Under the pieces are notes generated by a model. The model ran no database searches. It was not told the origin of the DNA and saw nothing but the letters and a program-made list of their open reading frames with translations. From Syntrophaceae bacterium (GTDB taxonomy: Bacteria > Desulfobacterota > BSN033 > UBA1163), in contig JACAEX010000033.1 of NCBI GenBank assembly GCA_013388635.1, forward strand, positions 2,356 through 66,355: DNA of 64,000 bases. Reading direction: 5' to 3'. Position numbers and translations under genes: made by a program. How positions within the stretch are numbered: the stretch's first letter is position 1; each line of letters opens with the position of its first letter. Below are positions 8,516 to 57,853 of this stretch, piece by piece.

Positions 8516-8526
8516 TGGTCAAACCA
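8516..8526. promoter_or_regulatory. Putative FadR-subfamily operator (TGGTCAAACCA)
   Basis: AATTGGTCAAACCATT lies downstream of TTGACA (8427-8432) and upstream of the cupin gene. The identical 11-mer occurs at 46760 and 46861. Confidence 0.6.
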
Positions 8527-40973: not shown

Positions 40974-42041
40974 TCAACCTGTCGTTGAGGCCCGAACAGG
41001 ATTCAGGATGGTCGTTGAAAAATCTTTCGATTCGACCCCAGGGGATTCGATCCTTTCCTTTTCATAAAAACTTTCTACCCTTTCGATGATCTGGTCTTCT
41101 TCCAGGGGAACCCTTTCCAGTGACCTCTCCAGACCGTCGAGCCGCTCCTTTGGAAAAAAGGTGAAATCCCCTGAGATGGTGATCTGCTCGATCCTTCTCT
41201 CCGAAATCTCTTCGATGGTCCGGATAAGTCCGCCCCTGGCCTTGTGGAGGCCGTAGTAGACCTCCAGGCCCTCTTTTATCTTCACCCCTTTGGGGACCTT
41301 GGATGTCTTTTTCAGCAGAAACCCTTCTGATGTCATCCAGGATTCTAACTCTTTCATCTTTTCGACAATTTCCTGGTTCAATGAGACAGGCTCGAGCCTT
41401 CCCAGCATCTTTTCAAAACTCTCTCGGAGTACCCTGACGATCTCCTCACGGCGAGGGATCGTTCCCAGCTCTTTCTTCATCGTGGTCAGATTTTCTTCCA
41501 TGGTTTTATGAACCTTATCCCTGAATTTTTCGTCAGGGACCTTCAAGATCCGACTCATCGTTCTGTAGTCAAAATCGAGGAGGATTCCTCCGACGAAGAC
41601 CATACAGTCCCCGATATTCCCTCCGCCCTCCCCTGCGATCTTTCTTCCCTCTCTGGTAATGATGTCGTTGACCGCCCGGTATTCGGCCTGGATTCCGAAG
41701 GTCCTGTAAGTCTCAACAGGCGCCTGTGAGAACCAGGGGTAGATCTCATGGATCGCCCTCGGGAATTTTTGATTCTCCTTCCTCCAGATCAGTTGATAGA
41801 AGATCTGGTTCTCATCGAGATAAGTGGCTCCTCCTCCGACCTCTCTTCGCATGAACGGGATCCCCATCCCTTTGCAGTACTGGAGGTCCACCTCCTGCTC
41901 GGCATCCTGGAAATATCCGATGCTCGCAAGAGGGCGGCTTGGTGATACGATCACCAGGGCCTCGATTCCCATTCGCGCAAGGGCATGAAAGATGAGCATC
42001 GATTGCTGCCCTGGAAGCTTTCCGAGATCAAATAGATACAT
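40974..42041 (-). CDS. lplA: Lipoate-protein ligase (LplA catalytic domain plus C-terminal LplB-like domain)
   Basis: SIGYFQD, RREVGGGATYLD, YRAVNDI...GRKIAG, KARGGLIR, ITISGDF. Confidence 0.88.
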   Translation of the reverse strand: MYLFDLGKLPGQQSMLIFHALARMGIEALVIVSPSRPLASIGYFQDAEQEVDLQYCKGMGIPFMRREVGGGATYLDENQIFYQLIWRKENQKFPRAIHEIYPWFSQAPVETYRTFGIQAEYRAVNDIITREGRKIAGEGGGNIGDCMVFVGGILLDFDYRTMSRILKVPDEKFRDKVHKTMEENLTTMKKELGTIPRREEIVRVLRESFEKMLGRLEPVSLNQEIVEKMKELESWMTSEGFLLKKTSKVPKGVKIKEGLEVYYGLHKARGGLIRTIEEISERRIEQITISGDFTFFPKERLDGLERSLERVPLEEDQIIERVESFYEKERIESPGVESKDFSTTILNPVRASTTG

Positions 42042-42098: not shown

Positions 42099-43286
42099 TC
42101 AGGACTTCATATTTTTGAGCACAAATTCCGTGATGTCCATCACGGTGATCGGGATCTTTTTCTTTCGGGCCGTGCTCATCATGGTGCGCACACACTGCTG
42201 ACAGGAGGTGATCACCGTATCGGCACCGGTGGCCTGGATCTGCTTGAGCTTCTCCTGGGCCAGGGCTGCCGAAAGCTCTGGATCGACCATCTCGAGGTTA
42301 CCTCCTCCACCGCAGCACTTGCACGCCTCTCGGCTGTTTTCCATCTCAACGAGGACCACCCCAGGGATCTGCCGGAGCACCTCTCGGGGCGGTTCATAAA
42401 CACCGCTCCCCCTGCCCAGATCGCAGGGATCGTGATACGTGACCTTCGCCTTTTTCTCCTTAAAGATGATCTTCCCTTCCTCGATCAACTTCTTGAGGAA
42501 CTGAGTGGAATGAAAGACCTCGATATCTGTTTGGTAATCCTCCAGCCAGGTATGGTAGCAAGACGGGCACGCGAAGACCGCCCGCACGACGCCCTTCGCT
42601 TTCATCTTTTCGAGATTGTGCTGGATCAGAACCTCGGCCTCCTTTTTCATTCCTGCTCCGATCAGAGGAAACCCACAGCACCACTCCTCTCCGCCGAGGA
42701 GGGTGAAATCAACCCCGGTCTTCCGAAAGATCTCGACGAGGGCCTTGGGAATCCTGTGGACCATGGGAAAGAAGGAGGCCACGCACCCGACGAAAAAGGC
42801 CACTTCAGCCCTCTCTTTGTCATAAAGGTGATCCGGGACCTCGTCCAGGGACTTGACCCACTCCACCCGCTCCATATTTTCATTTCCGAGGATGTTATGG
42901 ACCTCGGAGAGGTTGGACTTCAGTTGATCCATCGCCTTCGGGAAGTAGCCCATCTCCACCAGGGTCTCCCTCAAGGCAAGCCAGAGATTTTTAGCATCGA
43001 TGGAGACCGGACAGCTCACGCCACATTCACCGCAGAGGGTACAGCGGTAGACCATCTCTGAGAATCTTTTCAACTTCTCCTCGTCCAGTTTTTTAGGGCC
43101 GAAGACCCTTGCCCAAAGGCCGTACTGGCTCCGGATGAAAGCCTTAAAGGCCTGAATCTTTCCCCGGGGATCGATCTCCTCCTGGCCCTTCTGGGCATAG
43201 ACCGGGCAGGATTTCAGGCATTCGCCACACCGGGTGCAGGCATCGATCTCGATCAGTTGTCTGGGAGAGAGGGCTGAGAGCTTCAT
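42099..43286 (-). CDS. Fe-S oxidoreductase with 2x4Fe-4S and CCG domains (HdrD/GlcF-like)
   Basis: CTRCGECLKSCP, CTLCGECGVSCP, FVGC, WCCGFP, YHDPCDLGR, CCGGGG, TSCQQC. Confidence 0.9.
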   Translation of the reverse strand: MKLSALSPRQLIEIDACTRCGECLKSCPVYAQKGQEEIDPRGKIQAFKAFIRSQYGLWARVFGPKKLDEEKLKRFSEMVYRCTLCGECGVSCPVSIDAKNLWLALRETLVEMGYFPKAMDQLKSNLSEVHNILGNENMERVEWVKSLDEVPDHLYDKERAEVAFFVGCVASFFPMVHRIPKALVEIFRKTGVDFTLLGGEEWCCGFPLIGAGMKKEAEVLIQHNLEKMKAKGVVRAVFACPSCYHTWLEDYQTDIEVFHSTQFLKKLIEEGKIIFKEKKAKVTYHDPCDLGRGSGVYEPPREVLRQIPGVVLVEMENSREACKCCGGGGNLEMVDPELSAALAQEKLKQIQATGADTVITSCQQCVRTMMSTARKKKIPITVMDITEFVLKNMKS

Positions 43287-43292
43287 GGCGAA

Positions 43293-44405
43293 TTAGGCTG
43301 CCTCCTTCTTATTGGCAAGCCCTTCCTCATAAAGCCGGGCGAGGAACTCGGTGATATTGTAGATCTCGATGTTCTGCCTTCGCCTCGCATTTCTAAAATT
43401 ATGAAGGCATGAAGGGCACTCGGTGAGCAGAACCTCGGCTCCTGTCTCCTCGATGATCTGGCTCAAGCGGTTTCTTGCAATCTTGACCGAGTCCTTTGGA
43501 AATGCACCTCTGAAGCCTCCTCCCGCGCCGCAACACATGGCGTTCTCCCTGGTTCGTCTCGGCTCGACAAAATTGGGAGCGATCTTGCGGATGATTGCCC
43601 TCGGTTCATCATAGATGCCTGCATGACGGCCGAGATCGCAGGGGTCGTGATAGGTGACCCTTTTTTCCGTCTTCACCTCGAAGTCAAAGTCTTTGAGAAA
43701 CTGGGTGATGTGCTTAACCTCCAGGCCCAGATCCCGGTAGGCAGGATGTTCCTTGAAGACCCGGTAACAGTAAGGACAGGTGGTGATCAGGGTCTTCGCT
43801 CCGGTCTTCTGGAATTCTTGAATATTATGTTGGGCCAATCCTTTCTTGACTTGGTAGCCCACGTCTTCGAGCACCCCACTGCAGCAGACCTCTTCGATCA
43901 TGGTGAAGTCGACCTTGAGGAGATCGAGAAGGCGGATGGTCTCGGCCACGCTCTCCTGCTCCCGATAGGTCCCCACACAGCCTAAGAAGAGGACGTAGGG
44001 AGCCTTTCCCTTCCTATGGCCCCAGTCCTGCCTCTCTTGCTCTCCATAGATGTTGCCATACTTCTCCACGATCTCGCCCATGGCCCTGAAGAGGTTGTCG
44101 TATCCGATCCCGACCAGCTCTTTTCGCATGGCCTTGATCACCTCCTGAGGGTCTGCACCGGAGGGACAGTTGGTCGTACAATTCATGCAGGTGGTGCAGC
44201 GGAGAAGGGCCTGAGCCACGGCCTCGGTCACGGGAAGCTTCCCGTCCATCACCTCTTTGAGGAGGATCATCTTTCCTCGAGCATTGGTAATGGGCCTTTT
44301 GGTCAGGTCGAAGATCGGGCAGACCGCCCTGCAGAAGCCGCAGCGGGAACATTGGGTGATCGCCTTACGCCGGTTGTCGTCGAGTTGCAAATGGTTGATC
44401 ATCAT
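43293..44405 (-). CDS. Fe-S/CCG-domain subunit (GlcF/LdhB-like)
   Basis: CSRCGFCRAVCP, CTTCMNCTTNCP, FLGC, CCSG, YHDPCDLGR, CCGAGG, ECPSC. Confidence 0.9.
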   Translation of the reverse strand: MMINHLQLDDNRRKAITQCSRCGFCRAVCPIFDLTKRPITNARGKMILLKEVMDGKLPVTEAVAQALLRCTTCMNCTTNCPSGADPQEVIKAMRKELVGIGYDNLFRAMGEIVEKYGNIYGEQERQDWGHRKGKAPYVLFLGCVGTYREQESVAETIRLLDLLKVDFTMIEEVCCSGVLEDVGYQVKKGLAQHNIQEFQKTGAKTLITTCPYCYRVFKEHPAYRDLGLEVKHITQFLKDFDFEVKTEKRVTYHDPCDLGRHAGIYDEPRAIIRKIAPNFVEPRRTRENAMCCGAGGGFRGAFPKDSVKIARNRLSQIIEETGAEVLLTECPSCLHNFRNARRRQNIEIYNITEFLARLYEEGLANKKEAA

Positions 44406-44420
44406 TTCACCTGTTAAGTT

Positions 44421-44487
44421 AAAATTCCAAATCCAAAACACCAAATCCAAAATTGTTTCGGGTTTCGTGCTTCGAATTTCGGTTTTT
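44421..44487. repeat. Intergenic low-complexity palindromic repeat, copy 1
   Basis: aaattccaaatccaaaacaccaaatcc...; the core TTTCGTGCTTCGAATTT at 44463-44479 is shared with 49435-49451 (reverse) and 54687-54703. Confidence 0.65.
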
Positions 44488-45855
44488 TCATTTATCCAGT
44501 GCTCTTTTCCCAGGGTTCATAATATTGTTAGGGTCCAAAACCCTTTTGATCTTTCTCATCAGGGCCATCTCCACAGGATCGTGCTCCAGGCTCATGTAGT
44601 TGGCCTTGGAGAGGCCGATGCCATGCTCTCCTGAGAGGGTTCCCTTGAGTGAGATGGCCAAGTCGAAGATCTCCTCCTCGACCTTCTCCATCAACTCCAC
44701 CTGGTTCGGGTCGTACTCGTCGTAAAGGATCTGGGGATGGAGATTGCCATCGCCAGCATGGCCATAGGTCGCGATCAGCATGCCATGTTTTCGGGAGATC
44801 TCCTGGATCCCCAAGAGGAGGTCTGATATTCTTGAAACCGGAACGGTGACATCGTCCAGCACGAAGCTGTGGCTGGCCCGTGCCAGGGTGGCATAAGCAG
44901 ACTTGCGGGCCTTCCAGAGATCGAGCCGGTCCTTCTCATCCTTGGCCGTCTTAATAGAGATCGGATGGTTCTGGTTAAAGATGTTTAAGACGACCTCCAT
45001 TTGGGCCTCCACCTCCTGCCAGGTATAGCCGTCTGTCTCGGTCAGGATCATCGCCTCTGCATCAGGCAGGTCGATGTCGGTGTTCTCCTTAATCGATTTG
45101 AGAGTGACCTTGTCGAGGATCTCCATCACACTCGGAAGCACGCCACTCATCATGGTCTGAGAGATCGCCTTTCCCGCATCCTCCAGCCTGGCAAAGGTTG
45201 CCACTGCGGTCATCGCATGTCGGGGGATGGGATTGATCTTCAGGGTGACCTCCGTAATCACCCCCAGGGTTCCTTCAGAACCGACGAACAGTTTCGAAAG
45301 GTCGTAGCCCGAGACACACTTCATCGTGTAGGCGCCGGTTTGCATGATCTCACCGGTTGGCAGGACGACCTGCAGACCGAGGACATAGTCTCGCGTGGTG
45401 CCGTATTTGGCCCCCTTGATCCCGCCCGCGTTTGTGGCTACGTTGCCGCCGATCGTAGAGACGGAGCTGCTTGCAGGGTCAGGGGGAAATATGAAGCCGG
45501 ACTTTGCCAATGCCCGATTGAGATCGTCACAGACCACGCCTGCCTGGACCTTGGCATAACGGTTCTCAATACTGATTTCGAGGATGCGGTTCATCTTTGA
45601 GAGGTCGATGATGATGCCGCCCTGAATGGGGACCGCCCCGCCGCTCAGGCTGGTCCCTGCCCCCCTTGGGATCAGGGGGGTTTTATGCTCATTGGCAAAC
45701 TTGACGATTTCAGATACCTGCTCCGTCGATTCAGGCCAGACGGCGGCATCGGGTCTATGGACGTTGATCGAGGCATCATAACTGTAGGGCACCAGTTCCT
45801 CCAGCTGGTCGGTGAAATTCTCTTTCCCAACGATCTCAATCAATCTCTTAAGCAT
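44488..45855 (-). CDS. FAD-linked 2-hydroxy-acid dehydrogenase (GlcD/D-lactate dehydrogenase-like)
   Basis: PRGAGTSLSGG, FPPDPAS, NAGGIKGAKYGTTRDYV, GSEGTLG, GHAGDGNLHP, SGEHGIG, MNPGK. Confidence 0.92.
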   Translation of the reverse strand: MLKRLIEIVGKENFTDQLEELVPYSYDASINVHRPDAAVWPESTEQVSEIVKFANEHKTPLIPRGAGTSLSGGAVPIQGGIIIDLSKMNRILEISIENRYAKVQAGVVCDDLNRALAKSGFIFPPDPASSSVSTIGGNVATNAGGIKGAKYGTTRDYVLGLQVVLPTGEIMQTGAYTMKCVSGYDLSKLFVGSEGTLGVITEVTLKINPIPRHAMTAVATFARLEDAGKAISQTMMSGVLPSVMEILDKVTLKSIKENTDIDLPDAEAMILTETDGYTWQEVEAQMEVVLNIFNQNHPISIKTAKDEKDRLDLWKARKSAYATLARASHSFVLDDVTVPVSRISDLLLGIQEISRKHGMLIATYGHAGDGNLHPQILYDEYDPNQVELMEKVEEEIFDLAISLKGTLSGEHGIGLSKANYMSLEHDPVEMALMRKIKRVLDPNNIMNPGKRALDK

Positions 45856-46044: not shown

Positions 46045-46746
46045 TCATCGTTTCTGATTCCTGAAGGCCATCACCTCGGATTCGACATAATTTAGATGTT
46101 CAAGCGTTTTTCTCCTCGCCTTATTGGGCGAGCGGTTCTTGATCGCATCGAATATCTGGTAATGCTGACGAATCAGTTTTTTCACCTTTTCTCGATCCGT
46201 GAAGACCCGTGCTACCGATTCCCGGAGAAGCCCGTAAATGGTGGACATGAGATGGGTCTGGATGGTGTTATGGGTTGCCTGAGCGATGGCCAGGTGAAAA
46301 TCGGCATCTTCCTTTTCCCAGGATCGACCTTCGTCAAAGGCCTTGGTCATCTCCACGATGATCTCTTCCAGCCGTTTGATATCCTCGTCCATCGCTCTTT
46401 GAGCTGCCTGAAAGGAAGCCCATGACTCCATCGCCTTTCTCACCTCTATCAGATCGAAGATCTTCTGTGTGTCCGTTTTAATGATCCGGGAGAGGGGGTC
46501 TTCAATCCTTTCCGAGATGACCGATTTGACAAAGGTCCTCCTGGCCTGTTTCACTTCGAGAAACCCCATCGCCACCAATGAGTTCAGGGCCTCTCGGAGG
46601 GTGGGACGGCTTACACCAAATTCTTTAACGAGCTGGCGTTCGGGAGGAAGGCGATCGCCGGGCTTTAGCTTGCCCTCGCTGATGAGGCCTTTGATCTGGT
46701 TTACGATTTCGTCGGAGGCCCTTTTGGGCCTGATCGTTTGGAACAT
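46045..46746 (-). CDS. FadR-subfamily GntR regulator (LutR/PdhR/GlcC-like)
   Basis: IRPKRASDEIVNQI...LKPGDRLPPERQLVKEFGVSRPTLREAL, FCD domain DADFHLAIAQATHN. Confidence 0.92.
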   Translation of the reverse strand: MFQTIRPKRASDEIVNQIKGLISEGKLKPGDRLPPERQLVKEFGVSRPTLREALNSLVAMGFLEVKQARRTFVKSVISERIEDPLSRIIKTDTQKIFDLIEVRKAMESWASFQAAQRAMDEDIKRLEEIIVEMTKAFDEGRSWEKEDADFHLAIAQATHNTIQTHLMSTIYGLLRESVARVFTDREKVKKLIRQHYQIFDAIKNRSPNKARRKTLEHLNYVESEVMAFRNQKR

Positions 46747-46759
46747 GTCGATTCAGGTT

Positions 46760-46770
46760 TGGTCAAACCA
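46760..46770. promoter_or_regulatory. Putative FadR operator (autoregulatory)
   Basis: TGGTCAAACCA 14 nt upstream of the regulator start codon. Confidence 0.65.
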
Positions 46771-46860: not shown

Positions 46861-46923
46861 TGGTCAAACCATTTGTCCAAAAATCATTTTTTGGTTGACA
46901 ACCTCTCTGCGGTTTGTTATAAA
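46861..46923 (+). promoter_or_regulatory. FadR operator plus sigma70 promoter of the ligase/lyase/GlcDE operon
   Basis: TGGTCAAACCA (46861-46871), then TTGACA (46895-46900)-17 nt-TATAAA (46918-46923) with an extended TG. Confidence 0.7.
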
Positions 46924-46959: not shown

Positions 46960-48216
46960 ATGGCTCGTTTATATGAGTATCAGGGAAAACAGCTGCTCAA
47001 GGCAGCAAAAGTCCCCATTCCTCAGGGAGAGGTGGCTACGACACCGGAGGAAGCGGGGAAGATAGCGGAGAAGATCGGGAAGCCGGTCGCGATCAAGGCG
47101 CAGATCTGGGCCGGAGGCCGGGGAAAGGCTGGAGGCATTAAGTTTGCCCAGAATCCGGAAGAGGCCAAAAAGGTCGCCAGCGATCTTCTCGGATCGGAGA
47201 TCAAGAAGCTCAAAGTGGAGAAGGTCCTTGTTGAGGAGAAGCTGGAGATCGACAAGGAGTACTATGCGGGCATCATTATCGATGCCTCCAGGGAGGTGCG
47301 TGCGCCTGTGGTGATGTTCAGCACAGAGGGAGGCATGGACATCGAATCGGTGCCTTCCGAAAAGATTGCCCAGATGCCTGTGGATGTTTTGAGAGGCTTT
47401 CGCCTTTACGATGCCCTCAATCTCGGAGTCAGGCTGAAGGTCCCGACCAAATTCCTTCCAGCGATTGCTCAGGCTGTGATGGGTCTGTACCAGACCTTCC
47501 GGTCATATCATTGCAGGACAGCGGAGATCAATCCTCTGGTTCAGACCAAGGATGGCAAGATACTGGCCGGAGATTGTCGGATGGCGATTGACGACTCCTC
47601 CGTATTCCGTCATCCGGAGCTCGGCATTGAGGTGGCGCGAGAGTCACCCACGCCTCCGACTGAGCTGGATAAGATTGCGTGGCAGATAGAGGAGGGAGAT
47701 CTCCGGGGGACCTGCTACATTGCGCAGATGGTTCCAGAGATAAAGGAGCTCAATTACGTAGGCTATCATGGAATCGGCGGAGGCGGTGCGATTCTCGGGG
47801 TCGATGCCCTGAACCGGCAGGGGCTCAAGATTGCTAACTATGCGGACACCAGTGGAAACCCGACTGCGGCAAAGGTCTACAGGGCGGCCAAAGTGATTAT
47901 TAACCAGCCGGGGATCGAAGGGTATATGCTCGGTGGATTCATCGTGGCGAATCAGGAGCAGTGGCACCACGCACACGGCGTGGTGAAGGCCCTTCGGGAG
48001 GAGATACCCAAGAGGCCGGGTTTCCCCTGCGTGATCCTCCTCTGCGGAAATAAAGAGAAGGAGTCGATGGAGATACTGAAAGAGGGGACGAAAGATTTGC
48101 CCGGAAGGTTTGAGTTCTATGGAAGCGATAAGGTTTACGAGACCGAATTCTTAGCCAAGAGAATGAAGGCGCTGATCCTGGAGTACCGGAGGGACAGAGG
48201 GATAAAGGAGGAGTAG
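46960..48216 (+). CDS. ATP-grasp beta subunit of an SCS/malate thiokinase/ACL-like acyl-CoA synthetase
   Basis: LYEYQGKQLL, IKAQIWAGGRGKAGGI, VLVEE, GGMDIE, AEINPL. The C-domain (ANYADTSGNP, GFIVANQE) diverges from SucC. Confidence 0.85.
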   Translation: MARLYEYQGKQLLKAAKVPIPQGEVATTPEEAGKIAEKIGKPVAIKAQIWAGGRGKAGGIKFAQNPEEAKKVASDLLGSEIKKLKVEKVLVEEKLEIDKEYYAGIIIDASREVRAPVVMFSTEGGMDIESVPSEKIAQMPVDVLRGFRLYDALNLGVRLKVPTKFLPAIAQAVMGLYQTFRSYHCRTAEINPLVQTKDGKILAGDCRMAIDDSSVFRHPELGIEVARESPTPPTELDKIAWQIEEGDLRGTCYIAQMVPEIKELNYVGYHGIGGGGAILGVDALNRQGLKIANYADTSGNPTAAKVYRAAKVIINQPGIEGYMLGGFIVANQEQWHHAHGVVKALREEIPKRPGFPCVILLCGNKEKESMEILKEGTKDLPGRFEFYGSDKVYETEFLAKRMKALILEYRRDRGIKEE

Positions 48217-48219
48217 GCG

Positions 48220-48513
48220 ATGATTGAGTTTAAAGAGAGAACGATCAAAGTCATCATCGACGATAGCAAATGCAAAGATTGTAAGACGCACGCATGCGCA
48301 GCGGGTTGTAAGCTCTATGACAGGGGCATCCTGGTCATTAAAGACGGCAAACCAGCGCTCGCCGGTGATGCGGCCTATGCGGAGAGGGTTGGGACGGAAT
48401 GCCTGGCCTGCGAGTATGAGTGTTCGTTCAGAGGAAATAAAGCGATCCGGATCGAAGCCCCCATTCCAGGGCTGAAGGAGTATTTGGAGAAACGGGGACT
48501 GTCACTTTCATAA
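48220..48513 (+). CDS. Small ferredoxin-like Fe-S protein
   Basis: CKDCKTHACAAGC and GTECLACEYEC (7 Cys). RBS GGAGGAG, 3 nt after the beta-subunit stop. Confidence 0.8.
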   Translation: MIEFKERTIKVIIDDSKCKDCKTHACAAGCKLYDRGILVIKDGKPALAGDAAYAERVGTECLACEYECSFRGNKAIRIEAPIPGLKEYLEKRGLSLS

Positions 48514-48526
48514 GAAGGAGTGAGAA

Positions 48527-49423
48527 ATGGCTATTTTGCTTGAAAAGAACACGACAGTGTTGGTTCAGGGAATTACCGGAAGGGAAGGGTCTGCTCGGGC
48601 GGTTTTCATGAGAGATTATGGCACCAAAGTCGTGGCAGGGGTGACACCCGGACGGGGCGGTGAAGACGTCTCAGGGATACCGGTCTACAATACCGTTGAG
48701 GAAGCGGTAAGAGCACATGGCCGGATCGATGCCAGTGTGACCTTTGTGCCCGGCCCAGGACTGAAAGATGCGGTCTTTGAGGCGATTGATGGAGGAATCA
48801 AGTTTATATCGATGCCGGTTGAGCGGGTCCCTCTGTATGACATCCTTGAGATGATGGCCTATGCAAAGGTTCATGGGGTTAAACTCCTCGGGCCAGGCTC
48901 AATCGGTATCATGAGCCCTGGGATCGCTGTCATGGGATGGCTGGGAGGCACGCCTGAGTTTGCCAAGAGGGTCTTCGTGCCAGGACCGGTTGGCGTGATC
49001 TCAAGAAGTGGGGGTCAATCCGGGACTGTACCCTGGGCCATTAAGGAAGCTGGGATGGGTGTCAGCACGGTGATCCACATCGGGACAGAGCCGGTTCTAG
49101 GTATGTCCTGTGGCGACATCCTGCCCCTGTTCGAGAAAGACCCGGACACGAAGGCGGTGGCGATGTTCGGGGAGATCGGCGGGCCCTATGAGGAGGAGGC
49201 CGCAGAGGCGGTGAGGAAGAAGGAGTTCACCAAACCTCTCGTGGTCTACGTCGCAGGCGCGTGGGCCCCTGAAGGGATGCGGTTCTCCCATGCCAGCAGC
49301 ATCATTGAGAGAGGAAGGGGGTCGGCGAAGGATAAGATCAAGTCGCTCAAGGAGGCCGGGGTCCATGTGGTCGATCGGCCGGATGAGATCGCCCCAACCC
49401 TCAAACGCTTGCTGAAAATTTAA
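48527..49423 (+). CDS. CoA-binding alpha subunit of the SCS-like synthetase
   Basis: VLVQGITGREG, GVTPGRGG, LLGPGS, ISRSGG, IGTEP, FGEIGG, phospho-His RFSHAS. Confidence 0.88.
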   Translation: MAILLEKNTTVLVQGITGREGSARAVFMRDYGTKVVAGVTPGRGGEDVSGIPVYNTVEEAVRAHGRIDASVTFVPGPGLKDAVFEAIDGGIKFISMPVERVPLYDILEMMAYAKVHGVKLLGPGSIGIMSPGIAVMGWLGGTPEFAKRVFVPGPVGVISRSGGQSGTVPWAIKEAGMGVSTVIHIGTEPVLGMSCGDILPLFEKDPDTKAVAMFGEIGGPYEEEAAEAVRKKEFTKPLVVYVAGAWAPEGMRFSHASSIIERGRGSAKDKIKSLKEAGVHVVDRPDEIAPTLKRLLKI

Positions 49424-49430
49424 CCTTGAA

Positions 49431-49592
49431 CAAGAAATTCGAAGCACGAAATCCCTGCCTACCGCAGGCAGGCGAAATTCGAAACGAGCACGAATTACGA
49501 AAATACATTAATGATCGAAATAGGGGGTTTAGAACTTGAAGGATTTGGATTGAAGATTTGTTTCGGATTTCGATATTCGAAATTCGGATTTA
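49431..49592. repeat. Intergenic palindromic repeat, copy 2, with nested CCTGCCTACCGCAGGCAGG hairpin
   Basis: AAATTCGAAGCACGAAA (49435-49451), interrupted by a 19-nt hairpin (49454-49472), closing with tttcggatttcgatattcgaaattcggattt. Confidence 0.65.
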
Positions 49593-49614
49593 TTCCCAAA
49601 CAGGAGGTATGACA

Positions 49615-50511
49615 ATGACTGTGATGAGATCTGTTTTTTATGTTCCGGGGAATAATGAAAAGATGGTGGCCAAAGCACCGGAGATTCCAGCCGACATCAT
49701 CACCCTCGACCTGGAAGACTCTGTTCCACCCGCTGAAAAAGCGAAGGCCCGTGAGATGACCCGTGAGAATCTGAAGTTTGCAGGCTCTGGAGGGTCGACC
49801 GTATACGTCCGGATCAACAACTGGGAGACGTTGATGACGAACGATGACCTTGAGGCGATCGTCCACGAAGGGCTCTCCGGGGTCTGTCTGGCGAAGTGTG
49901 GAGGGCCGGATCATGTCCAGCGCCTCGACTGGAAGCTTGAGGAGCTCGAGAGGAGAAGAGGCCTGCCTGTAGGGAGCATCGCCATCCAGCTTCTCATCGA
50001 AACAGCCAAAGGGGTGATCAACGCCTATCCCTCAGCCATCGCAAGCAAAAGGGTCAACTCCCTGATCTTCGGTGCGGTGGATTACACAAAAGATATGAGG
50101 GTGAAGCTGACGATCGAAGGCGAGGAGCAGTTCTATGCGAGGGCCCATACTGCTGTTGCGGCAAGGGCTGCAGGGTGCATTGCCATTGACTGCCCGTTTG
50201 TGGCGTACAAAGACACCGAGGCATTTGAAAAGAGCACGCGATTTGGCCGTCAATTAGGCTATGAAGGAAGGATGCTCATCCATCCAAGCCAGATCGAACC
50301 CTCTCACCGGATCTACACGCCAGCACCGGAGGACGTGGAATGGGCCAGAGGGGTGGTCAAGGTCTTCGAGGAGGAGGGAATTGCCAAAGGCGCGGCCGCG
50401 GTCTCCTATCAGGGGAAGATGGTAGACACCCCGGTCTATGAGAATGCGAAGACGATCCTGGCCATTATGGAAGAGATCGCCGCCTTCGATGCAAAGCGCA
50501 AAAAGGCCTGA
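49615..50511 (+). CDS. CitE/HpcH family acyl-CoA lyase (malyl-/citramalyl-/citryl-CoA lyase-like)
   Basis: RSVFYVPG, DLEDSV, YVRIN, LLIETAKG, FGAVDY, GRMLIHPSQI, GKMVDTP. Confidence 0.9.
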   Translation: MTVMRSVFYVPGNNEKMVAKAPEIPADIITLDLEDSVPPAEKAKAREMTRENLKFAGSGGSTVYVRINNWETLMTNDDLEAIVHEGLSGVCLAKCGGPDHVQRLDWKLEELERRRGLPVGSIAIQLLIETAKGVINAYPSAIASKRVNSLIFGAVDYTKDMRVKLTIEGEEQFYARAHTAVAARAAGCIAIDCPFVAYKDTEAFEKSTRFGRQLGYEGRMLIHPSQIEPSHRIYTPAPEDVEWARGVVKVFEEEGIAKGAAAVSYQGKMVDTPVYENAKTILAIMEEIAAFDAKRKKA

Positions 50512-50770: not shown

Positions 50771-51682
50771 ATGAAGATCGTTCTCGTAGGCCAGGGCCCT
50801 TTTGGAGAGAAGGTTTTGAGGTCTCTGGTTGAGAACGGCGAGAAAGTGGTCGGCGTCTTCTGTCCTCCGGATCGGAGGGGAGAGCCGTTGAGGGAGGCCG
50901 CAGAGCAGGCAGGCGTTTTGTTCTTTCGTCCCTCCCGGATGAAGAATCCCGAAGTCTATGAAGCCTACCTGAAGTTGGAGCCCGATCTGGTCATCCTTGC
51001 CTTTGTAACCGATATCATTCCAGAGAGGCTGCTCGATCTTCCTTCGATCGGGACGATCTGCTATCATCCCTCTCTTCTGCCAAGGCATCGAGGAGCCAGT
51101 GCGATCAACTGGGCGATCATCATGGGAGAGACCCGAACGGGGCTGACAATCCTTTGGGCCGATAAGGGGATTGATACCGGACCGATCCTCCTTCAAAAAG
51201 AGGTGGAGATCGGGCCCCATGATACTGCAGGGACCCTTTATTTTAATACCCTCTTTCCTCTCGGGGTTCATGCGATCATGGAGGCGGTTGAGCTGATCGA
51301 AAAGGGAAGGGCGCCTCGAATCCCTCAGGACGATTCAAAGGCGACCTATGAGCCTCCTTGCGATGATCGGGTGGCGAGGATCGATTTTGGGAGACCGGCC
51401 AGGGACGTCTACAATCTGATCAGGGGGTGCGATCCTCAGCCCGGTGCTTATACAACCTTTAAGGGGAAGAAGACGAGGTTTTATGAGGCCATGCTGATTC
51501 CGGAATCCACGGGAAGGGCCTTGGGAGAGATCATCTCCATCGAGGAGAGTGGACTTCGGGTTGCACTAAAAGATGGCGTCATCCAGATCGGTAGACTGAG
51601 GACGGAGAAAGGGGAGAAGGTTGGCCCGATCGAGTTTGCTAAATTGACCGACTTGAGAGCAGGAGATCGATTTGGAGAATAG
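50771..51682 (+). CDS. Stand-alone formyltransferase domain, similar to the 10-formyl-THF hydrolase domain of ALDH1L1
   Basis: MKIVLVGQ..FG, YHPSLLPRHRGASAINW, WADKGIDTG, LFPLG, GRAPRIPQ..ATYE, C-terminal Fmt_C domain. Confidence 0.85.
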   Translation: MKIVLVGQGPFGEKVLRSLVENGEKVVGVFCPPDRRGEPLREAAEQAGVLFFRPSRMKNPEVYEAYLKLEPDLVILAFVTDIIPERLLDLPSIGTICYHPSLLPRHRGASAINWAIIMGETRTGLTILWADKGIDTGPILLQKEVEIGPHDTAGTLYFNTLFPLGVHAIMEAVELIEKGRAPRIPQDDSKATYEPPCDDRVARIDFGRPARDVYNLIRGCDPQPGAYTTFKGKKTRFYEAMLIPESTGRALGEIISIEESGLRVALKDGVIQIGRLRTEKGEKVGPIEFAKLTDLRAGDRFGE

Positions 51683-51789
51683 GACAATTTTAGACAGGGA
51701 TTTCGGATTGGAGAGGCTTTGAAGATAAACCCTCCGAATTCTTAACTCATGACTCCGAACTGTTTTGCACAAAATTCCAGGAGGTTTTG

Positions 51790-53181
51790 ATGGAACGAGA
51801 GAAGATGGTTGAGGAACTGGCGGGGATCGTAGGGAAGGAGAATGTCCTGTCCTCTGAGACGGACTTGCTCCTCTACGGCTACGATGCCTCCCTCTTCAGG
51901 GGAAGGCCTGACTGCATCGTCCTTCCTGGTTCGACCGAAGAGGTTTCGAAGATCGTCAAGTTCGCCCGGGCGAATGGCATCCATATTGTCGCCAGGGGAT
52001 CTGGAACGAACCTGAGCGGTGGGACCATTCCCACCCAGGGAGGGATCGTCCTTCACTTTTCTCGGATGAACAGGGTTCTGGAGATCGACATCGAGAATCA
52101 GAGGGCCGTGGTGGAGCCGGGGATCTTCACCCTTGTGCTGAAGAACCAATTGGCCCGTTACGGATATATTTACCAACCCGATCCGGCCAGCGAGAAGGTC
52201 TCCACGCTTGGAGGAAATTTCGGAGAAAATTCGGGAGGGCCCCACTGCCTCAAATACGGGGTGACGACCAACCACATCTTAGGGGCAGAGGTTGTGCTCT
52301 ACGACGGTGAGGTGATTCAGGTCGGCGGCAAAGCCCTTGACCATCCGGGTTACGATCTAACCGGCGTGCTAGTGGGATCGGAGGGAACACTGGGAATTGC
52401 GACGAAGTTGATCCTCCGGATCATGCCAAAACCTGAAGCGGTCAAGACGATGCTCGCCATCTACAACTCCCTGGAGGATGCAGGCAGGACGGTCTCCGCG
52501 ATCATTGCCGATGGGATCATCCCTGCGACCTTAGAGATGATTGACCGATTGACGATTAAGGCGGTTGAGGAGTCGATCCACGCCGGATTTCCTCTCGATG
52601 CAGAGGCTGTTCTTCTAATCGAACTGGATGGATTAAAGGATGGGATGGAGAGGCTGGCTGAAAGGATCATGGAGATATGCAGGAAGAACAATGTCCGTGA
52701 GGTGAAGGTGGCAAAGACCGAGGCAGAGAGGGCGCAGCTCTGGGCCGGACGAAGGGGTGCCTTCGGCGCGGTGGCCCGGCTCAGGCCGAACTACTTTGTC
52801 TGCGACGGAACCGTTCCGAGAACAAGGCTGCCCGAGGTTCTGACCAGGGTGATGGAGATAGGCAGGAGATACGGCCTCGCCATTGCGAATGTCTTCCATG
52901 CGGGAGATGGAAACCTTCATCCTCTTATCCTTTTCGATGAGCGAAATGAGGAGGAGCTGAGAAAGGTCCATTTAGCCGGGTCTGAGATCTTGAAATTATG
53001 TGCTGATGCAGGTGGGACGATCAGCGGGGAGCATGGCATTGGCACGGAGAAGATGAAGGAGATGCTCTTCGTCTTCAACTCTCAGGACATTGCGGCCATG
53101 AAAAAGGTAAAGAAGGCCTTCGACCCTGAGGATGTTTATAATCCGGGGAAGGTCCTGCCGGAACAGACGCTCTCTGCTTAG
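51790..53181 (+). CDS. glcD: Glycolate dehydrogenase FAD subunit
   Basis: RGSGTNLSGG, PDPASEKVSTLGG, NSGGPHCLKYGVT, GSEGTLG, FHAGDGNLHP, SGEHGIG, NPGK. Confidence 0.88.
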   Translation: MEREKMVEELAGIVGKENVLSSETDLLLYGYDASLFRGRPDCIVLPGSTEEVSKIVKFARANGIHIVARGSGTNLSGGTIPTQGGIVLHFSRMNRVLEIDIENQRAVVEPGIFTLVLKNQLARYGYIYQPDPASEKVSTLGGNFGENSGGPHCLKYGVTTNHILGAEVVLYDGEVIQVGGKALDHPGYDLTGVLVGSEGTLGIATKLILRIMPKPEAVKTMLAIYNSLEDAGRTVSAIIADGIIPATLEMIDRLTIKAVEESIHAGFPLDAEAVLLIELDGLKDGMERLAERIMEICRKNNVREVKVAKTEAERAQLWAGRRGAFGAVARLRPNYFVCDGTVPRTRLPEVLTRVMEIGRRYGLAIANVFHAGDGNLHPLILFDERNEEELRKVHLAGSEILKLCADAGGTISGEHGIGTEKMKEMLFVFNSQDIAAMKKVKKAFDPEDVYNPGKVLPEQTLSA

Positions 53182-53203
53182 CGTGGGAGAAGGAGAAAGG
53201 AGT

Positions 53204-54565
53204 ATGCCCAGCACCATGAAAACGCTTTCTCGGCTGCAAGAGATCGTTGGGGAAGCCAATCTCATTAAGGATCGCGATAGGCTAAAGGCTTATAAACTGG
53301 ATGGAAAGACCCCCAAGGTGGTTGTCTCTCCGGCGACGGTCGACGAGACCTCCAGGGTCGTGGCTTATGCCTATGAAAAAGGGTTAGCCCTCGTCCCGAG
53401 AGGGAATGGGACAAAGATGAAGATGGGTGGCATTCCCAAAAGGGTGGACATCCTTCTTTCAACCACCCGGCTCAATCGGATAACTGATAAGGACTGCGAC
53501 AATCTCACCCTCTGCGTAGAAAGCGGCATCACCCTCGATGAGGTTCAGAAGACCCTGGCCAGAGAGGGGAGAGGCTACTTTCTTCCTCTCGACCCACCTT
53601 TCTCAGATAAGGCGACGCTCGGCGGGATTGTGGCGACAAATGCGAGCGGGCCCAAGAGATTGCTCTACGGCACAGCGAGAGACTTAATTACAGGTATGAA
53701 GACGGTCTTCCCCAATGGGGATGTGGTGGTTTCAGGTGGGAAGACGGTCAAGAATGTCTCCGGCTATGATATGTGTAAACTCCTGATCGGTTCTTTTGGA
53801 ACCCTGGGCATCATCTGTGAGATGACTTTTAGACTCCTTCCCCTTCCCGAAAAGGAGGCGACTCTCCTCCTCTCCTTCCAAAAGCTGGAGCAGGCCGATG
53901 GATTCGTTCGGGAGATCATCTCGTCCCAGCTTATTCCTGCCTCCATTGAAACCCTCAACCGACCGGCTCTCGATTATTTGAAACGCCAGATCCCTCTATC
54001 GACGGATGGGAATTATCTCGTTGCCATTGGATTGGAGGGTGTTCGAGAGGGTGTGGAGAGACAGATGGCTGAGATTGGGGAACGGGGGAAGAGATACGGA
54101 TGTGTCAACGCGGAGGCGATGGATGGGGAGGAAGGAGAGGCCTTTTGGAAGGCCCTTCGAGACTTCTCGATCTGGAGCGATCCGGATCTCATCTCTCTCA
54201 AGTCGAATTTTTTCCTGTCAAAACACGGGGAGATGATCGCAAGTTATGAAAGGATGACCGCAGAATCGGGTGTTCGATCTGCCTTGATCTGCCATTCCGG
54301 AAATGGGATCCTTTATTCCCATCTCCTCACGGCAAAGGTTTCGCGATCAAAAGCCGAGGTCTTGGCCGGGCTGATTCAAAAGATGACCCTGGAAGCGGTG
54401 AAGAACGGAGGAAATCTGATTGTGGAGTCGGCCCCTTCTTCTCTTAAAAAGAGAATCGATGTGTGGGGAGAGGCCCGGAGCGATCTCCGGATCATGCAGC
54501 GTATTAAAGAGGAGATGGATCCGAGGAGAATCCTCAACCCGGGAAGGTTTGTAGGAGGAATCTAA
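53204..54565 (+). CDS. glcE: Glycolate dehydrogenase second FAD-binding subunit
   Basis: ATLGGIVATNASGP.RLLYG..RD, GGKTVKNVSGYDMCKL.IGSFGTLG, ILNPGRF. Lacks GEHG. Confidence 0.88.
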   Translation: MPSTMKTLSRLQEIVGEANLIKDRDRLKAYKLDGKTPKVVVSPATVDETSRVVAYAYEKGLALVPRGNGTKMKMGGIPKRVDILLSTTRLNRITDKDCDNLTLCVESGITLDEVQKTLAREGRGYFLPLDPPFSDKATLGGIVATNASGPKRLLYGTARDLITGMKTVFPNGDVVVSGGKTVKNVSGYDMCKLLIGSFGTLGIICEMTFRLLPLPEKEATLLLSFQKLEQADGFVREIISSQLIPASIETLNRPALDYLKRQIPLSTDGNYLVAIGLEGVREGVERQMAEIGERGKRYGCVNAEAMDGEEGEAFWKALRDFSIWSDPDLISLKSNFFLSKHGEMIASYERMTAESGVRSALICHSGNGILYSHLLTAKVSRSKAEVLAGLIQKMTLEAVKNGGNLIVESAPSSLKKRIDVWGEARSDLRIMQRIKEEMDPRRILNPGRFVGGI

Positions 54566-54731: not shown

Positions 54732-55880
54732 ATGAAACAGGAAGAGCTGAAGACATTGTTATACGATGAGATCGCCAAATGCAATCGGTGTGGCTTCTGT
54801 TTGGCAGTCTGTCCTGTTTATACCGTTAAAGGAAGAGAGTGGGCGACGCCAAGGGGTAAGAATGCGCTGATCCGGGCGATCATCGAGAATAAGATCGATT
54901 GGACCCCGGAGATCGAGGAGACCCTCTTCCGCTGTACCGGATGCAGGCTCTGTACCCAGACCTGTTTTCCTGCTGTGGAGACGAACCAGGGTGTTCTCGC
55001 AGGAAGGGAGTGCCTGGTCGACAGAAGGCAGTACCCAAAGGTTGTCGATCGGGTGGTGGAGGCCCTGGAGAAGAATTTCAATATCTCCGGTGAGTCAAAT
55101 CAAAGCCGTTCGATGTGGGTGGAGGGATTGGGGGAGGTTCCCGATCATAAGTTTCAAAAGGAGAGGGCTGAGGTGATCTACTTCGTCGGATGTGTGGCAG
55201 CCTTCTACCCCATGGCCCATAAAATTCCTCAGACCTTTGTCCGGATTCTGGACAGGGCCGGAGTGGACTTCACCATCCTTGGAGGAGAGGAGTGGTGCTG
55301 CGGGTTTCCTCTGATTCAGGCAGGGATGAAGGAGAAGATGGGAAAACTGGTGGAACACAATGAGCAGAAGGTGAAGGAGGTGGGTGCGAAGGCCGTTGTC
55401 TTTGCCTGTCCCTCCTGTTATCACACGTGGAAGGAGAGGTATCATACCGATGCTGAGCTGCTCCACTCCACCCAGTTCATGGAGAGACTGATCGAGGAGA
55501 AGAAGATTGCTTTCAATAACGGGATTGAGAGGAAGGTGACCTATCACGATCCCTGCGATCTCGGCAGAAACAGTGGCGTTTACGACCCGCCGAGAAATAT
55601 ATTGAGAAAAATCCCCAATCTTCATCTGGTCGAACTGGAAGGAAATCGCCAGCTATCGGTTTGTTGTGGCGGGGGAGGGGATCTTGAGATGATCGATCCG
55701 GAGCTCTCCGCAGCCATTGCTCAAAGGAAGGTCGAAGAGATTCAGAGGACCGGAGCGGACGAGGTGGTCACTTCCTGCCAGCAATGCATCCGGACGATCT
55801 CCGGTTACGCCAGAAAACACAAGATCAAAATCAGGGTCAAGGATATTACCGAAGTGGTCTGGGAGGCGATGGTAAAGTAG
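54732..55880 (+). CDS. Fe-S/CCG-domain subunit (GlcF role, HdrD-like sequence)
   Basis: CNRCGFCLAVCP, CTGCRLCTQTC, FVGC, WCCGFP, YHDPCDLGR, CCGGGG, TSCQQC. Confidence 0.9.
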   Translation: MKQEELKTLLYDEIAKCNRCGFCLAVCPVYTVKGREWATPRGKNALIRAIIENKIDWTPEIEETLFRCTGCRLCTQTCFPAVETNQGVLAGRECLVDRRQYPKVVDRVVEALEKNFNISGESNQSRSMWVEGLGEVPDHKFQKERAEVIYFVGCVAAFYPMAHKIPQTFVRILDRAGVDFTILGGEEWCCGFPLIQAGMKEKMGKLVEHNEQKVKEVGAKAVVFACPSCYHTWKERYHTDAELLHSTQFMERLIEEKKIAFNNGIERKVTYHDPCDLGRNSGVYDPPRNILRKIPNLHLVELEGNRQLSVCCGGGGDLEMIDPELSAAIAQRKVEEIQRTGADEVVTSCQQCIRTISGYARKHKIKIRVKDITEVVWEAMVK

Positions 55881-57213: not shown

Positions 57214-57220
57214 AGGCGAC

Positions 57221-57263
57221 TGGGGAGGGGGAGCGGAATATTTTCGATTCTCCTCCCCATTTT
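57221..57263 (+). terminator. Stem-loop between dctP and dctQ (attenuating or mRNA-stabilising)
   Basis: TGGGGAGGGGGAG ... TTCTCCTCCCCA followed by TTTT. Confidence 0.5.
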
Positions 57264-57304
57264 ACGTGGATGGAACGGGCTGAAGATCCTCTGAGGAGAA
57301 GGTT

Positions 57305-57853
57305 ATGGATGGTTTGAGGAAATTTATGATGATTGTGAACAAAACCAACATCTTTGTCGGAAAGATGATGGTTGGGGTGACCCTGCTGGCTGTCTTTGTG
57401 ATCACCTTTGAGGTGGTGATGCGTTATGTGTTTAACCGGCCTACAAACTGGGGCCATGAGAGCATGATCCTCCTTTTTGCGATTTTCTACTGTGCCGCGG
57501 CCGGCTATGCCCACTACTACCGCGCCCATGTGCGAGTGGATGTTTTTTACTCGACTCGCCCTCCAAGAACAAGAGCCTACCTCGATTTGATCACCTCTAT
57601 CTTTTTCTTTCTCTTTGCGATCGTCTTCACCTATACGAGCTGGAATTTTTACTGGAGTTCCCAGACCATGCTAGGTGGAGGTAAGATATTCGGGATTACC
57701 GTTCCCGGAGAACTCTCCTTTACCGATTGGCAACCTCCTTACTATCCGGTCAAGTTTATGATGCCTCTGGGAGGGTTTTTGTTGCTGCTTCAGGGAGTTG
57801 TCTGGTTGATCCGCGATATCCACATGGCTGCGACCGGGAGGGAGATGAAATGA
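57305..57853 (+). CDS. dctQ: TRAP small permease
   Basis: EVVMRYVFNRPTNW, AHVRVDVFY, YPVKFMMP. Confidence 0.9.
   Translation: MDGLRKFMMIVNKTNIFVGKMMVGVTLLAVFVITFEVVMRYVFNRPTNWGHESMILLFAIFYCAAAGYAHYYRAHVRVDVFYSTRPPRTRAYLDLITSIFFFLFAIVFTYTSWNFYWSSQTMLGGGKIFGITVPGELSFTDWQPPYYPVKFMMPLGGFLLLLQGVVWLIRDIHMAATGREMK

Follow-up and report, generated by a model that had tools for sequence, protein, structure and literature searches.

A conserved ferredoxin-like third component in a CitE-paired acyl-CoA ligase, with a candidate role in the malyl-CoA route of anaerobic glycolate breakdown

A three-component ligase locus

We describe an acyl-CoA ligase locus at positions 46960-50511 of a 64,000-nt stretch of Syntrophaceae DNA (the whole of which is called the window here), in which the gene for a small ferredoxin-like protein (Fdx) lies between those of the beta and alpha subunits and is followed by a gene for a CitE-type acyl-CoA lyase. 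At the family level, the claim of a three-component ligase that forms a clade of its own is well supported computationally. With slightly better than even confidence, we read the locus as encoding a three-component, ADP-forming acyl-CoA ligase that is paired with CitE, the two acting as malyl-CoA ligase and lyase in glycolate breakdown; the substrate, the direction and the role of the clusters in this reading are those that gene content and sequence suggest.

Succinyl-CoA synthetase (SCS), citryl-CoA synthetase (CCS) and ATP-citrate lyase (ACL) are textbook enzymes with many solved structures, and for the malyl-CoA pathway of anaerobic glycolate and glyoxylate degradation, enzyme activities have been on record since the 1990s. 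In the literature we found no report of an iron-sulfur (Fe-S) subunit or domain in the SCS/CCS/ACL family and no gene assignment for the anaerobic malyl-CoA synthetase or its pathway. Among the solved ligase members matched in the PDB, none is described with an Fe-S component.

The core genes are as follows:

46960-48216, forward strand: beta subunit, with an ATP-grasp N-domain and a CCS/ACL-like C-domain (Pfam, PDB scores, tree)
48220-48513, forward strand: 97-amino-acid (AA), 7-Cys ferredoxin-like gene (homologues, Cys pattern, AlphaFold2 fold)
48527-49423, forward strand: alpha subunit, with a CoA-binding domain and the putative phosphohistidine loop RFSHASSI (Pfam, NCBIfam)
49609-50511, forward strand: CitE/HpcH acyl-CoA lyase, candidate malyl-CoA lyase (Pfam HpcH_HpaI PF03328)

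This tight packing of beta, the 97-AA 7-Cys gene and alpha, with CitE behind them, had been described in an earlier reading of the letters alone (the original prediction), and the open reading frames (ORFs) and gaps agree with it. The beta ATG at 46960 is preceded by AAGGAGG and the stop lies at 48216; after a gap of 3 nt comes the small ORF, which has its own ribosome-binding site (AAGGAGGAG), and after a further 13 nt the alpha gene, preceded by GAAGGAG. The motifs quoted in that reading were also found, ANYADTSGNP and GGFIVANQE in beta and SRSGG and FSHAS in alpha. An error of gene calling, or a beta C-terminus split off by a frameshift, was considered as the origin of the small ORF and rejected, as the ORF has its own ribosome-binding site and stands as a separate gene in 80 species.

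The small gene is kept between the ligase subunits

Homologues of the small protein numbered 232, with lengths of 87-138 AA, mostly 91-97 AA. A scan of one genome per species placed relatives of the gene in 272 species. Locus counts given here and below refer to the best 80 of these 272 species' loci, each from a different species, and denominators smaller than 80 are the loci with room for the gene in question. Nearly all of the 80 loci belong to Thermodesulfobacteriota or "delta proteobacteria" (Syntrophales, Syntrophorhabdales, Desulfobacterales-like). Beta lies directly upstream of the small gene in 75 of 75 loci and alpha directly downstream in 79 of 79, while CitE comes after the ligase genes in 75 of 77. 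The beta-Fdx-alpha-CitE arrangement is thus far beyond chance. The original prediction had left it to the orthologous loci to show whether the ferredoxin gene is regularly there or mostly absent; it was found between the subunits wherever there was room, and in sister lineages it is fused to beta.

As the 80 loci had been ascertained via the small gene, the search was repeated starting from beta. This search was exhaustive over 1.84 billion representatives and left 150 beta representatives after clustering at 50% identity. Beta relatives of 521-541 AA, 40-56% identical, carry the same ferredoxin-like domain at the beta C-terminus; such fusions make up 15 of the 150 representatives, and all of them fall inside one clade (support 100/95), which also holds the window's beta. 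The fusion is the strongest computational evidence here that beta and the small protein would act as one unit. Elsewhere in this clade, in the branches of loci L084, L087 and L091, a separate gene of 84-92 AA with 8 Cys stands between beta and alpha. The P0258 lineage has a Cys-less remnant only, with the C-terminal tail '..VPGLETYREKL' retained. Context look-ups showed no such gene between beta and alpha in the P0247 lineage, and beta-alpha pairs without the small gene in three neighbouring clades (P0275, P0286, P0289).

Together, the gene data indicate that the ligase has the small protein as a true and conserved third component, and suggest that beta, the small protein and alpha associate physically.

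Two further features of these loci were noted. At L027 (1287-3928) the beta-Fdx-alpha set occurs without CitE and adjoins a three-gene 2-oxoacid:ferredoxin oxidoreductase (OFOR; alpha, beta, gamma), with no delta-subunit gene among the ORFs of at least 110 AA. A conserved protein of about 490 AA without a Pfam match is encoded just downstream of CitE in L042, L043, L064 and L065 (for example L043 8332-9810).

The ligase forms a branch of its own

In Pfam, the beta subunit matched ATP-grasp_2 with 189.8 bits and Citrate_bind (PF16114) with 28.1 bits at a cut-off of 26.8; the Pfam scan gave no match to Ligase_CoA (PF00549) in beta. PF16114 was carried by all 120 listed close beta homologues. The alpha subunit matched CoA_binding, Succ_CoA_lig and Ligase_CoA. 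All NCBIfam scores remained below the cut-offs: those of beta with the SucC models (NF001913/TIGR01016; 253.9 vs. 370 and 245.6 vs. 375.6) and the MtkA model (NF010647; 180.9 vs. 604), and those of alpha with the SucD models (NF004230/TIGR01019; 286.4 vs. 336 and 282.6 vs. 353.2). Against the PDB, the best whole-protein score of beta was with Thermus SCS (3ufx_B, 222 bits), followed by Hydrogenobacter CCS (6hxq_B, 153 bits), E. coli SucC (136 bits, aligned only to residue 327) and Chlorobium ACL (6hxj_A, 87 bits); the best PDB match of alpha was the SCS protein 2yv2. Identity of beta was 26-35% to plasmid-borne SucC and 27-30% to MtkA. In the alignment with 6HXQ_B, the motifs PPTE..D.RG, GGGG and (G/S)GNP(P/T)A are common to both proteins and absent from SucC, and beta has SGNP and GGFIVANQE where SucC has GGGA and GGIVR(C).

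Maximum-likelihood trees were built with PDB chains and with MtkA and SucC from annotated plasmids as named references. The window's beta falls in its own clade (100/95). Separate from it are the SucC/MtkA/Thermus clade (100/100), within which MtkA nests inside SucC, and the CCS/ACL clade with 6hxq_B and 6hxj_A (100/99), which leaves the window's clade out; the sister of the window's clade is a pair resembling CCS and citryl-CoA lyase (CCL) without an Fe-S gene. From family scores, domains and tree together, it follows that the ligase is a distinct branch, neither ordinary SucCD/MtkAB nor CCS/ACL, with an acid-binding domain like that of CCS/ACL. The subunits had been described beforehand as not ordinary SucCD or MtkAB, which is borne out by the sub-cut-off scores and by a beta clade that stands apart from SucC, MtkA, CCS and ACL alike; neither the scores nor the beta tree place the subunits within ordinary SucCD/MtkAB. 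The accompanying label "ACL-like" holds for the beta C-domain (Citrate_bind; GGGG and GNP as in 6HXQ_B) and fails for the ligase as a whole, the clade being distinct and the best overall score being that with Thermus SCS.

We give almost no credence to the explanation that this is an ordinary SucCD or MtkAB operon in which an unrelated small ferredoxin gene has come to lie between the subunits by chance. The best overall matches are indeed to SCS (3ufx_B for beta, 2yv2 for alpha), and beta is annotated "succinyl-CoA synthetase beta subunit" in the sources, but the sub-equivalog scores, the low identities to SucC and MtkA quoted above, the fully supported separate clade, the invariant gene order and the fusion of the small gene to beta in relatives all speak against it, and it was rejected on these grounds.

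The catalytic His of alpha is conserved. Throughout the CitE-partnered subfamily, the SucD-type GHAGA loop is replaced by RFSHASSI, with the His itself kept, and the second loop reads HIGTEPV; relatives with CCL-type lyases have RFGHAGA as the His loop. With ATP-grasp and CoA-binding domains present and the alpha His conserved, the ligase chemistry is probably intact.

Cysteines, fold and role of the small subunit

The seven cysteines of the small protein are C18, C21, C26, C30, C61, C64 and C68, a pattern found in 198 of 201 subfamily members. They form a first motif, Cx2Cx4Cx3C, and a second, Cx2Cx3C, whose first Cys is missing through G58 and a one-residue deletion, again in 198 of 201. Fused and out-group forms have Cx2Cx4Cx3C together with the canonical Cx2Cx2Cx3C, giving 8 Cys in total. 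By the logic of ferredoxins, C18, C21, C26 and C68 would hold one [4Fe-4S] cluster, and C30, C61 and C64 would provide a three-Cys site for a second cluster, either [3Fe-4S] or site-differentiated.

Across lineages the Cys content is 8, 7, 4 or about 0. Exactly the four ligands of the second cluster are kept, and all four of the first lost, in P0251, P0254 and P0301; P0257 and P0258 are nearly Cys-free. Such cluster-wise, coherent loss argues that the motifs do bind clusters, and also that the clusters are not required for the ligase chemistry as such. The redox-gated ligase suggested in the original prediction is a speculative reading and not supported in that form.

The AlphaFold2 model of the small protein reached a pLDDT (predicted local distance difference test) of 86 from a 64-sequence alignment. 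Its Foldseek matches are essentially all ferredoxin-like Fe-S domains and are weak (E of at least 0.02, TM-scores of 0.4-0.5); the top ones are 2waq_D, 2pa8_D and 9a0b_B (probability 0.90-0.96), and the leading folds are the structural Fe-S domain of archaeal RNA polymerase subunit D and HgcB. In Pfam and NCBIfam the small protein had no match at E <= 0.01, and a PDB profile search with it returned chance matches only and no sequence homologue. For Fer4 in particular, weak sub-threshold matches were seen in 59 of 64 members, the best score of the window protein being 13.8 vs. a threshold of 24.5. In the model of the fused P0246 (pLDDT 87, predicted TM-score 0.78), a disordered linker is followed by an Fdx domain predicted with confidence, which shows folding and not docking position.

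Most likely the small subunit has a structural or regulatory rather than a catalytic role, in assembly, docking or the sensing of O2 or redox state, judging from the loss of the Cys in some lineages and from top fold matches that include the structural Fe-S domain of RNA polymerase subunit D. Alternatively, the small protein would be a working electron carrier to GlcDEF, pyruvate:ferredoxin oxidoreductase (PFOR) or another oxidoreductase, or would serve a redox step of another reaction, which we regard as decidedly unlikely. The near-invariance of the seven Cys in the subfamily would suit a carrier, as would the Fe-S oxidoreductases that often adjoin (GlcF/CCG proteins and PFOR; OFOR in L027) and the label of PFOR delta subunit that the JGI gives to some homologues. 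Yet the ligase and lyase reactions are redox-neutral, the domain occurs in L089 and L091 with no oxidoreductase called (about 10-12 kb each), several lineages have lost one or both ligand sets and kept the domain or its tail, and the fusion partner is beta and no oxidoreductase.

The lyase and the genes around the ligase

As a member of the HpcH_HpaI TIM-barrel family, the CitE protein scored 137.6 bits with PF03328 (cut-off 25). Its PDB matches include 1sgj (136 bits), Methylobacterium malyl-CoA lyase 5ugr (127 bits) and CLYBL 5vxc (118 bits). All equivalog models remained below cut-off, namely TIGR01588 (209 vs. 443), RipC (139 vs. 375) and the haloarchaeal malyl-CoA lyase (80 vs. 500).

The following features flank the core genes:

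42099-43286 and 43293-44450, reverse strand (divergent): two CCG Fe-S proteins (Pfam, NCBIfam)
44488-45855, reverse strand (divergent): GlcD-like gene (Pfam, NCBIfam)
46045-46746, reverse strand (divergent): GntR/FCD regulator, nearest PdhR, LldR and GlcC (Pfam GntR and FCD)
46760-46770 and 46861-46871, no strand assigned: two exact TGGTCAAACCA boxes (TGGT-N3-ACCA) in the 213-nt intergenic region between regulator and beta
50771-51682, forward strand: Fmt-like formyltransferase (Pfam Formyl_trans_N and Formyl_trans_C)
51787-53181, 53132-54565 and 54732-55880, forward strand: GlcD-, GlcE- and GlcF-like genes of a glycolate-oxidase-type 2-hydroxyacid dehydrogenase (Pfam)
56062-59163, forward strand: DctP, DctQ and DctM of a tripartite ATP-independent periplasmic (TRAP) transporter with a lactate-type binding protein (Pfam)

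The forward-strand GlcD scored 531 bits with TIGR00387 (cut-off 568), the GlcE model gave 155 bits, and the CCG protein 100 bits with GlcF. A GlcD-family gene is present within 6 kb in 59 of 80 loci. The binding protein of the transporter (56062-57213) matched Thermus TTHA0766, a Ca-lactate binding protein (2zzv), with 460 bits, confirming the lactate-type TRAP transporter named in the original prediction; TRAP genes flank 11-13 of the 80 loci. Further recurring neighbours in these loci are an AGXT-like class V aminotransferase (7), a D-2-hydroxyacid dehydrogenase (6), an LctP permease (6), a LarA-like racemase (5), a CitF-like transferase (5) and PFOR (4).

The regulator scored 175 bits with PdhR, 175 with LldR and 126 with GlcC, all sub-cut-off, and a homologous regulator lies upstream in 23 of 80 loci. 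The TGGTCAAACCA boxes next to it are candidate FadR-type operators. A third copy lies at 8516-8526; the window-wide count of 3 is not significant, since at least 3 were obtained in 11 of 100 shuffles. Directly next to the first box, the minus strand carries what resembles a strong promoter (TTGACA-18-TAAAAT, 46799-46770). Alpha and CitE are 185 nt apart, and this gap contains an AT-rich hairpin (49562-49588; stem of 12 bp), which may serve as an attenuator or processing site or may be a repeat element.

By analogy with DVU3027-28, a two-subunit D-lactate dehydrogenase, the divergent GlcD and CCG unit would be of the D-lactate/glycolate dehydrogenase type. The unit ends with a gene for an LplA-like lipoate-protein ligase (40974-42041, reverse strand); the genes scanned, which cover about 36.7-63 kb of the window, included none for a lipoyl-domain protein.

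Behind CitE, the Fmt-like gene recurs in 42 of 80 loci, all of them from the closer relatives. What it would do in a malyl-CoA route is not obvious; a link from glyoxylate and glycine to one-carbon metabolism is conceivable. This gene had brought an oxalyl-CoA or formyl-CoA role to mind, which was set aside because more distant loci have the core without it.

Distant relatives of the ligase

More distant ligase relatives were found in other surroundings. At L087 (1667-6574) a relative with Fdx and a CCL-type lyase stands beside glutamate mutase; two relatives without Fdx stand beside class I fumarase-like genes (L092 104-3760) and methylaspartase (L094 76-9233), and no lyase gene was seen in these two stretches. 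By analogy, these branches suggest a role in a citramalate/methylaspartate pathway. At L089 (3081-10989), beside an ABC transporter, the order is PrpD, CCL, a beta::Fdx fusion, alpha, aconitase-like large and small subunits, PrpF and GntR, a cluster whose gene content looks like an uncharacterised tricarboxylate catabolic pathway. The Fdx-less sister group is represented by L085 (3856-9660), where Icd, beta, alpha and CCL (260 AA, citrate-synthase fold) adjoin aconitase; going by its genes, this is a module of the citryl-CoA synthetase/lyase type outside the reference CCS/ACL clade.

Relatives of this kind bear on the possibility that the window encodes a citryl-CoA synthetase with a CitE-type citryl-CoA lyase, that is, a two-step equivalent of ATP-citrate lyase or, as in Desulfobacter, the same reactions run backwards with a gain of ATP. 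The clusters of the sister group (P0275) have the composition Icd-beta-alpha-CCL-aconitase, the fused relative P0271 stands beside PrpD, CCL and aconitase-like genes, and the beta C-domain matches Citrate_bind with motifs common to 6HXQ_B. We nevertheless consider a citryl-CoA enzyme very unlikely here: the window has an inducible-looking hydroxyacid operon (GlcDEF, TRAP, an LldR/GlcC-like regulator) and not genes of the tricarboxylic acid (TCA) cycle, and its alpha carries FSHASS and IGTEP vs. the FGHAGA of CCL-partnered relatives, which suggests a shift in specificity.

The proposed reaction and its main rival

The invariant partner of the ligase is an acyl-CoA C-C lyase, and therefore the ligase should handle the CoA ester of a hydroxy-di- or tricarboxylic acid. 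Glyoxylate is favoured as the 2-oxoacid because of the GlcDEF-like, lactate-type TRAP, LctP and AGXT-like neighbours and the PdhR/LldR/GlcC-like regulator. We propose that imported glycolate would be oxidised to glyoxylate by the GlcDEF-like enzyme, that the CitE-type lyase would condense glyoxylate with acetyl-CoA to (S)-malyl-CoA, and that the ligase would convert malyl-CoA, ADP and Pi to malate, CoA and ATP via a phosphohistidine intermediate. The ligase would consist of the ATP-grasp beta, the phosphohistidine alpha and the small ferredoxin-like Fe-S subunit bound to them, and the locus would supply the genes for the "malyl-CoA pathway", which is known from the physiology of anaerobes that degrade glycolate. 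Such a malyl-CoA route with substrate-level ATP synthesis is plausible, in that it fits both the neighbours and the known anaerobic pathway.

Desulfofustis glycolicus is a sulfate reducer that oxidises glycolate. A Desulfofustis metagenome-assembled genome (MAG; L090) has DctP next to beta-Fdx-alpha-CitE, and the D. glycolicus DSM 9705 protein WP_073373350.1 is in the same 90%-identity cluster as the L090 beta and 58% identical to the window's beta. The AGXT-like and 2-hydroxyacid dehydrogenase neighbours echo the serine-cycle cluster sga-mtkAB-hpr-mcl, which is present at L081 and L083. The malyl-CoA pathway has been described from enzyme activities in D. glycolicus, Syntrophobotulus glycolicus and Moorella (sp. 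HUC22-1). In Moorella it was reportedly the subject of work by Sakai et al. in 2008.

The main rival keeps the same ligase and lyase and changes the acid: pyruvate, formed from lactate, would react reversibly with acetyl-CoA to (S)-citramalyl-CoA and on to citramalate, with ATP-dependent cleavage of citramalate as a possible physiological direction. It owes this place to the lactate-type transporter, the D-lactate-dehydrogenase-type enzymes, the CitE scores and the methylaspartate-pathway relatives. LarA, LctP and D-lactate-dehydrogenase-like genes are among the neighbours, CitE scores 118 bits with CLYBL and 139 bits with the RipC citramalyl-CoA lyase model, PFOR directly follows CitE in L045, L047 and L051, and ligase relatives stand beside glutamate mutase, a class I fumarase-like enzyme and methylaspartase (L087, L092, L094), which suggests citramalate as the acid of those relatives. 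However, no coherent lactate catabolic route needs citramalate, the three-gene GlcD/GlcE/GlcF set is typical of glycolate oxidase, the AGXT-like and glyoxylate-reductase-like neighbours point to glyoxylate, and the methylaspartate-pathway neighbours belong to other subclades, which have CCL-type lyases instead of CitE. On balance we take citramalate to be an unlikely choice for the window, though one that deserves real weight.

Several observations weigh against malyl-CoA and a structural or regulatory Fe-S subunit. The PDB scores of CitE are about equal for malyl-CoA and citramalyl-CoA lyases and do not separate these specificities; the nearest match of the TRAP binding protein is a lactate binder; LarA and LctP fit lactate as well as glycolate; two-subunit GlcD and CCG enzymes can be D-lactate dehydrogenases; and the methylaspartate-pathway relatives include a class I fumarase/mesaconase-like enzyme among their neighbours. 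The match in the type strain of D. glycolicus is to a protein sequence only, the gene order being taken from the Desulfofustis MAG, and the DNA metagenomes that contain the window sequence are three, from hot springs only. As to the small protein, its Fe-S binding is read from motifs and a predicted fold, its Fer4 scores are below threshold, and the seven near-invariant Cys of the window's subfamily imply that the clusters do matter there; they may have an electron-transfer or catalytic role.

A bolder version of the malyl-CoA reading can be put forward as a tentative and rather doubtful extension. Here beta-Fdx-alpha would be a hitherto unrecognised, anaerobe-specific branch of NDP-forming acyl-CoA synthetases, in which an integral Fe-S module gates either activity or assembly by redox state or O2, or tethers the lyase in a supercomplex like that of ACL; in the 7-Cys subfamily the three-Cys cluster would have a functional open iron site, and the enzyme of this subfamily would be the ATP-conserving malyl-CoA synthetase of anaerobic glycolate oxidation.

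An Fe-S subunit that is conserved in at least 272 species for this subfamily alone, and fused to beta in sister lineages, would be a new type of architecture in the ligase superfamily and raises the mechanistic question of why a redox-neutral ligase needs iron-sulfur clusters. For the anaerobic malyl-CoA pathway, the locus also provides candidates for the genes behind substrate-level phosphorylation, and D. glycolicus DSM 9705 is a cultured organism that carries a beta of this clade. An ATP-yielding bypass of malate synthase would be of interest for the design of synthetic glyoxylate and photorespiration pathways.

Comparison with known systems

SucCD (E. coli 1JKJ, Thermus 3UFX, archaeal alpha 2YV2) shares with the window's ligase the alpha/beta architecture, the ATP-grasp and CoA-binding Rossmann domains and the catalytic His. 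Where SucCD has GGGA and IVRC, the window's ligase has SGNP and ANQE, and it differs further by the third subunit and the separate clade.

MtkAB with Mcl of the serine cycle, like the anaerobic malyl-CoA pathway, has the same reaction pair as that proposed for the window; the anaerobic pathway also runs in the ATP-forming direction proposed here. Serine-cycle clusters contain AGXT-like and 2-hydroxyacid dehydrogenase genes, as do some window-type loci. In contrast, MtkA is only 27-30% identical to the window's beta and nests inside SucC, and to our knowledge MtkAB has no Fe-S subunit.

ACL (Chlorobium AclAB 6HXJ; human ACLY) has, like the window's ligase, a Citrate_bind-type C-domain, the motif ANY..(Y/T)SG.P and a ligase coupled to C-C cleavage. 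The match is weak (87 bits, 6hxj_A), the window's ligase is without the fused citrate-synthase-homology module, and we know of no Fe-S component in ACL.

CcsAB with Ccl (Hydrogenobacter thermophilus, 6HXQ) is a two-step ligase and lyase system, as is that of the window. CcsA shares PPTE..D.RG, the GGGG loop, (G/S)GNP(P/T)A and G-G-x-x-AN with the window's beta C-domain, the window's alpha and the CCS-like alpha of L085 have an insertion in common, and a CCL-type lyase with the citrate-synthase fold occurs, as in CCS, in the L087, L089 and L093 branches and in the Fdx-less sister L085. Compared with CCS, the window's clade (100/95) is separate from the CCS/ACL clade (100/99), its partner lyase is CitE/HpcH where CCS has one with the citrate-synthase fold, the ligase has a ferredoxin-like protein as third subunit, the alpha His loop is FSHASS, and the context is hydroxyacid catabolism and not the reductive TCA cycle.

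For the small subunit, the nearest parallels are the Fe-S domain of archaeal RNA polymerase subunit D (2PA8/2WAQ), HgcB and PFOR delta, which have the (beta-alpha-beta)2 ferredoxin fold predicted for it and two Cys motifs. It differs from these modules in weak E-values, in the Cx2Cx4Cx3C spacing, in a motif 2 without its first Cys and in its acyl-CoA ligase partner. Compared with 2x[4Fe-4S] ferredoxins (Fer4), it is without the two CxxCxxCxxxC motifs and sub-threshold in Pfam, whereas motif 2 is complete in relatives outside the subfamily.

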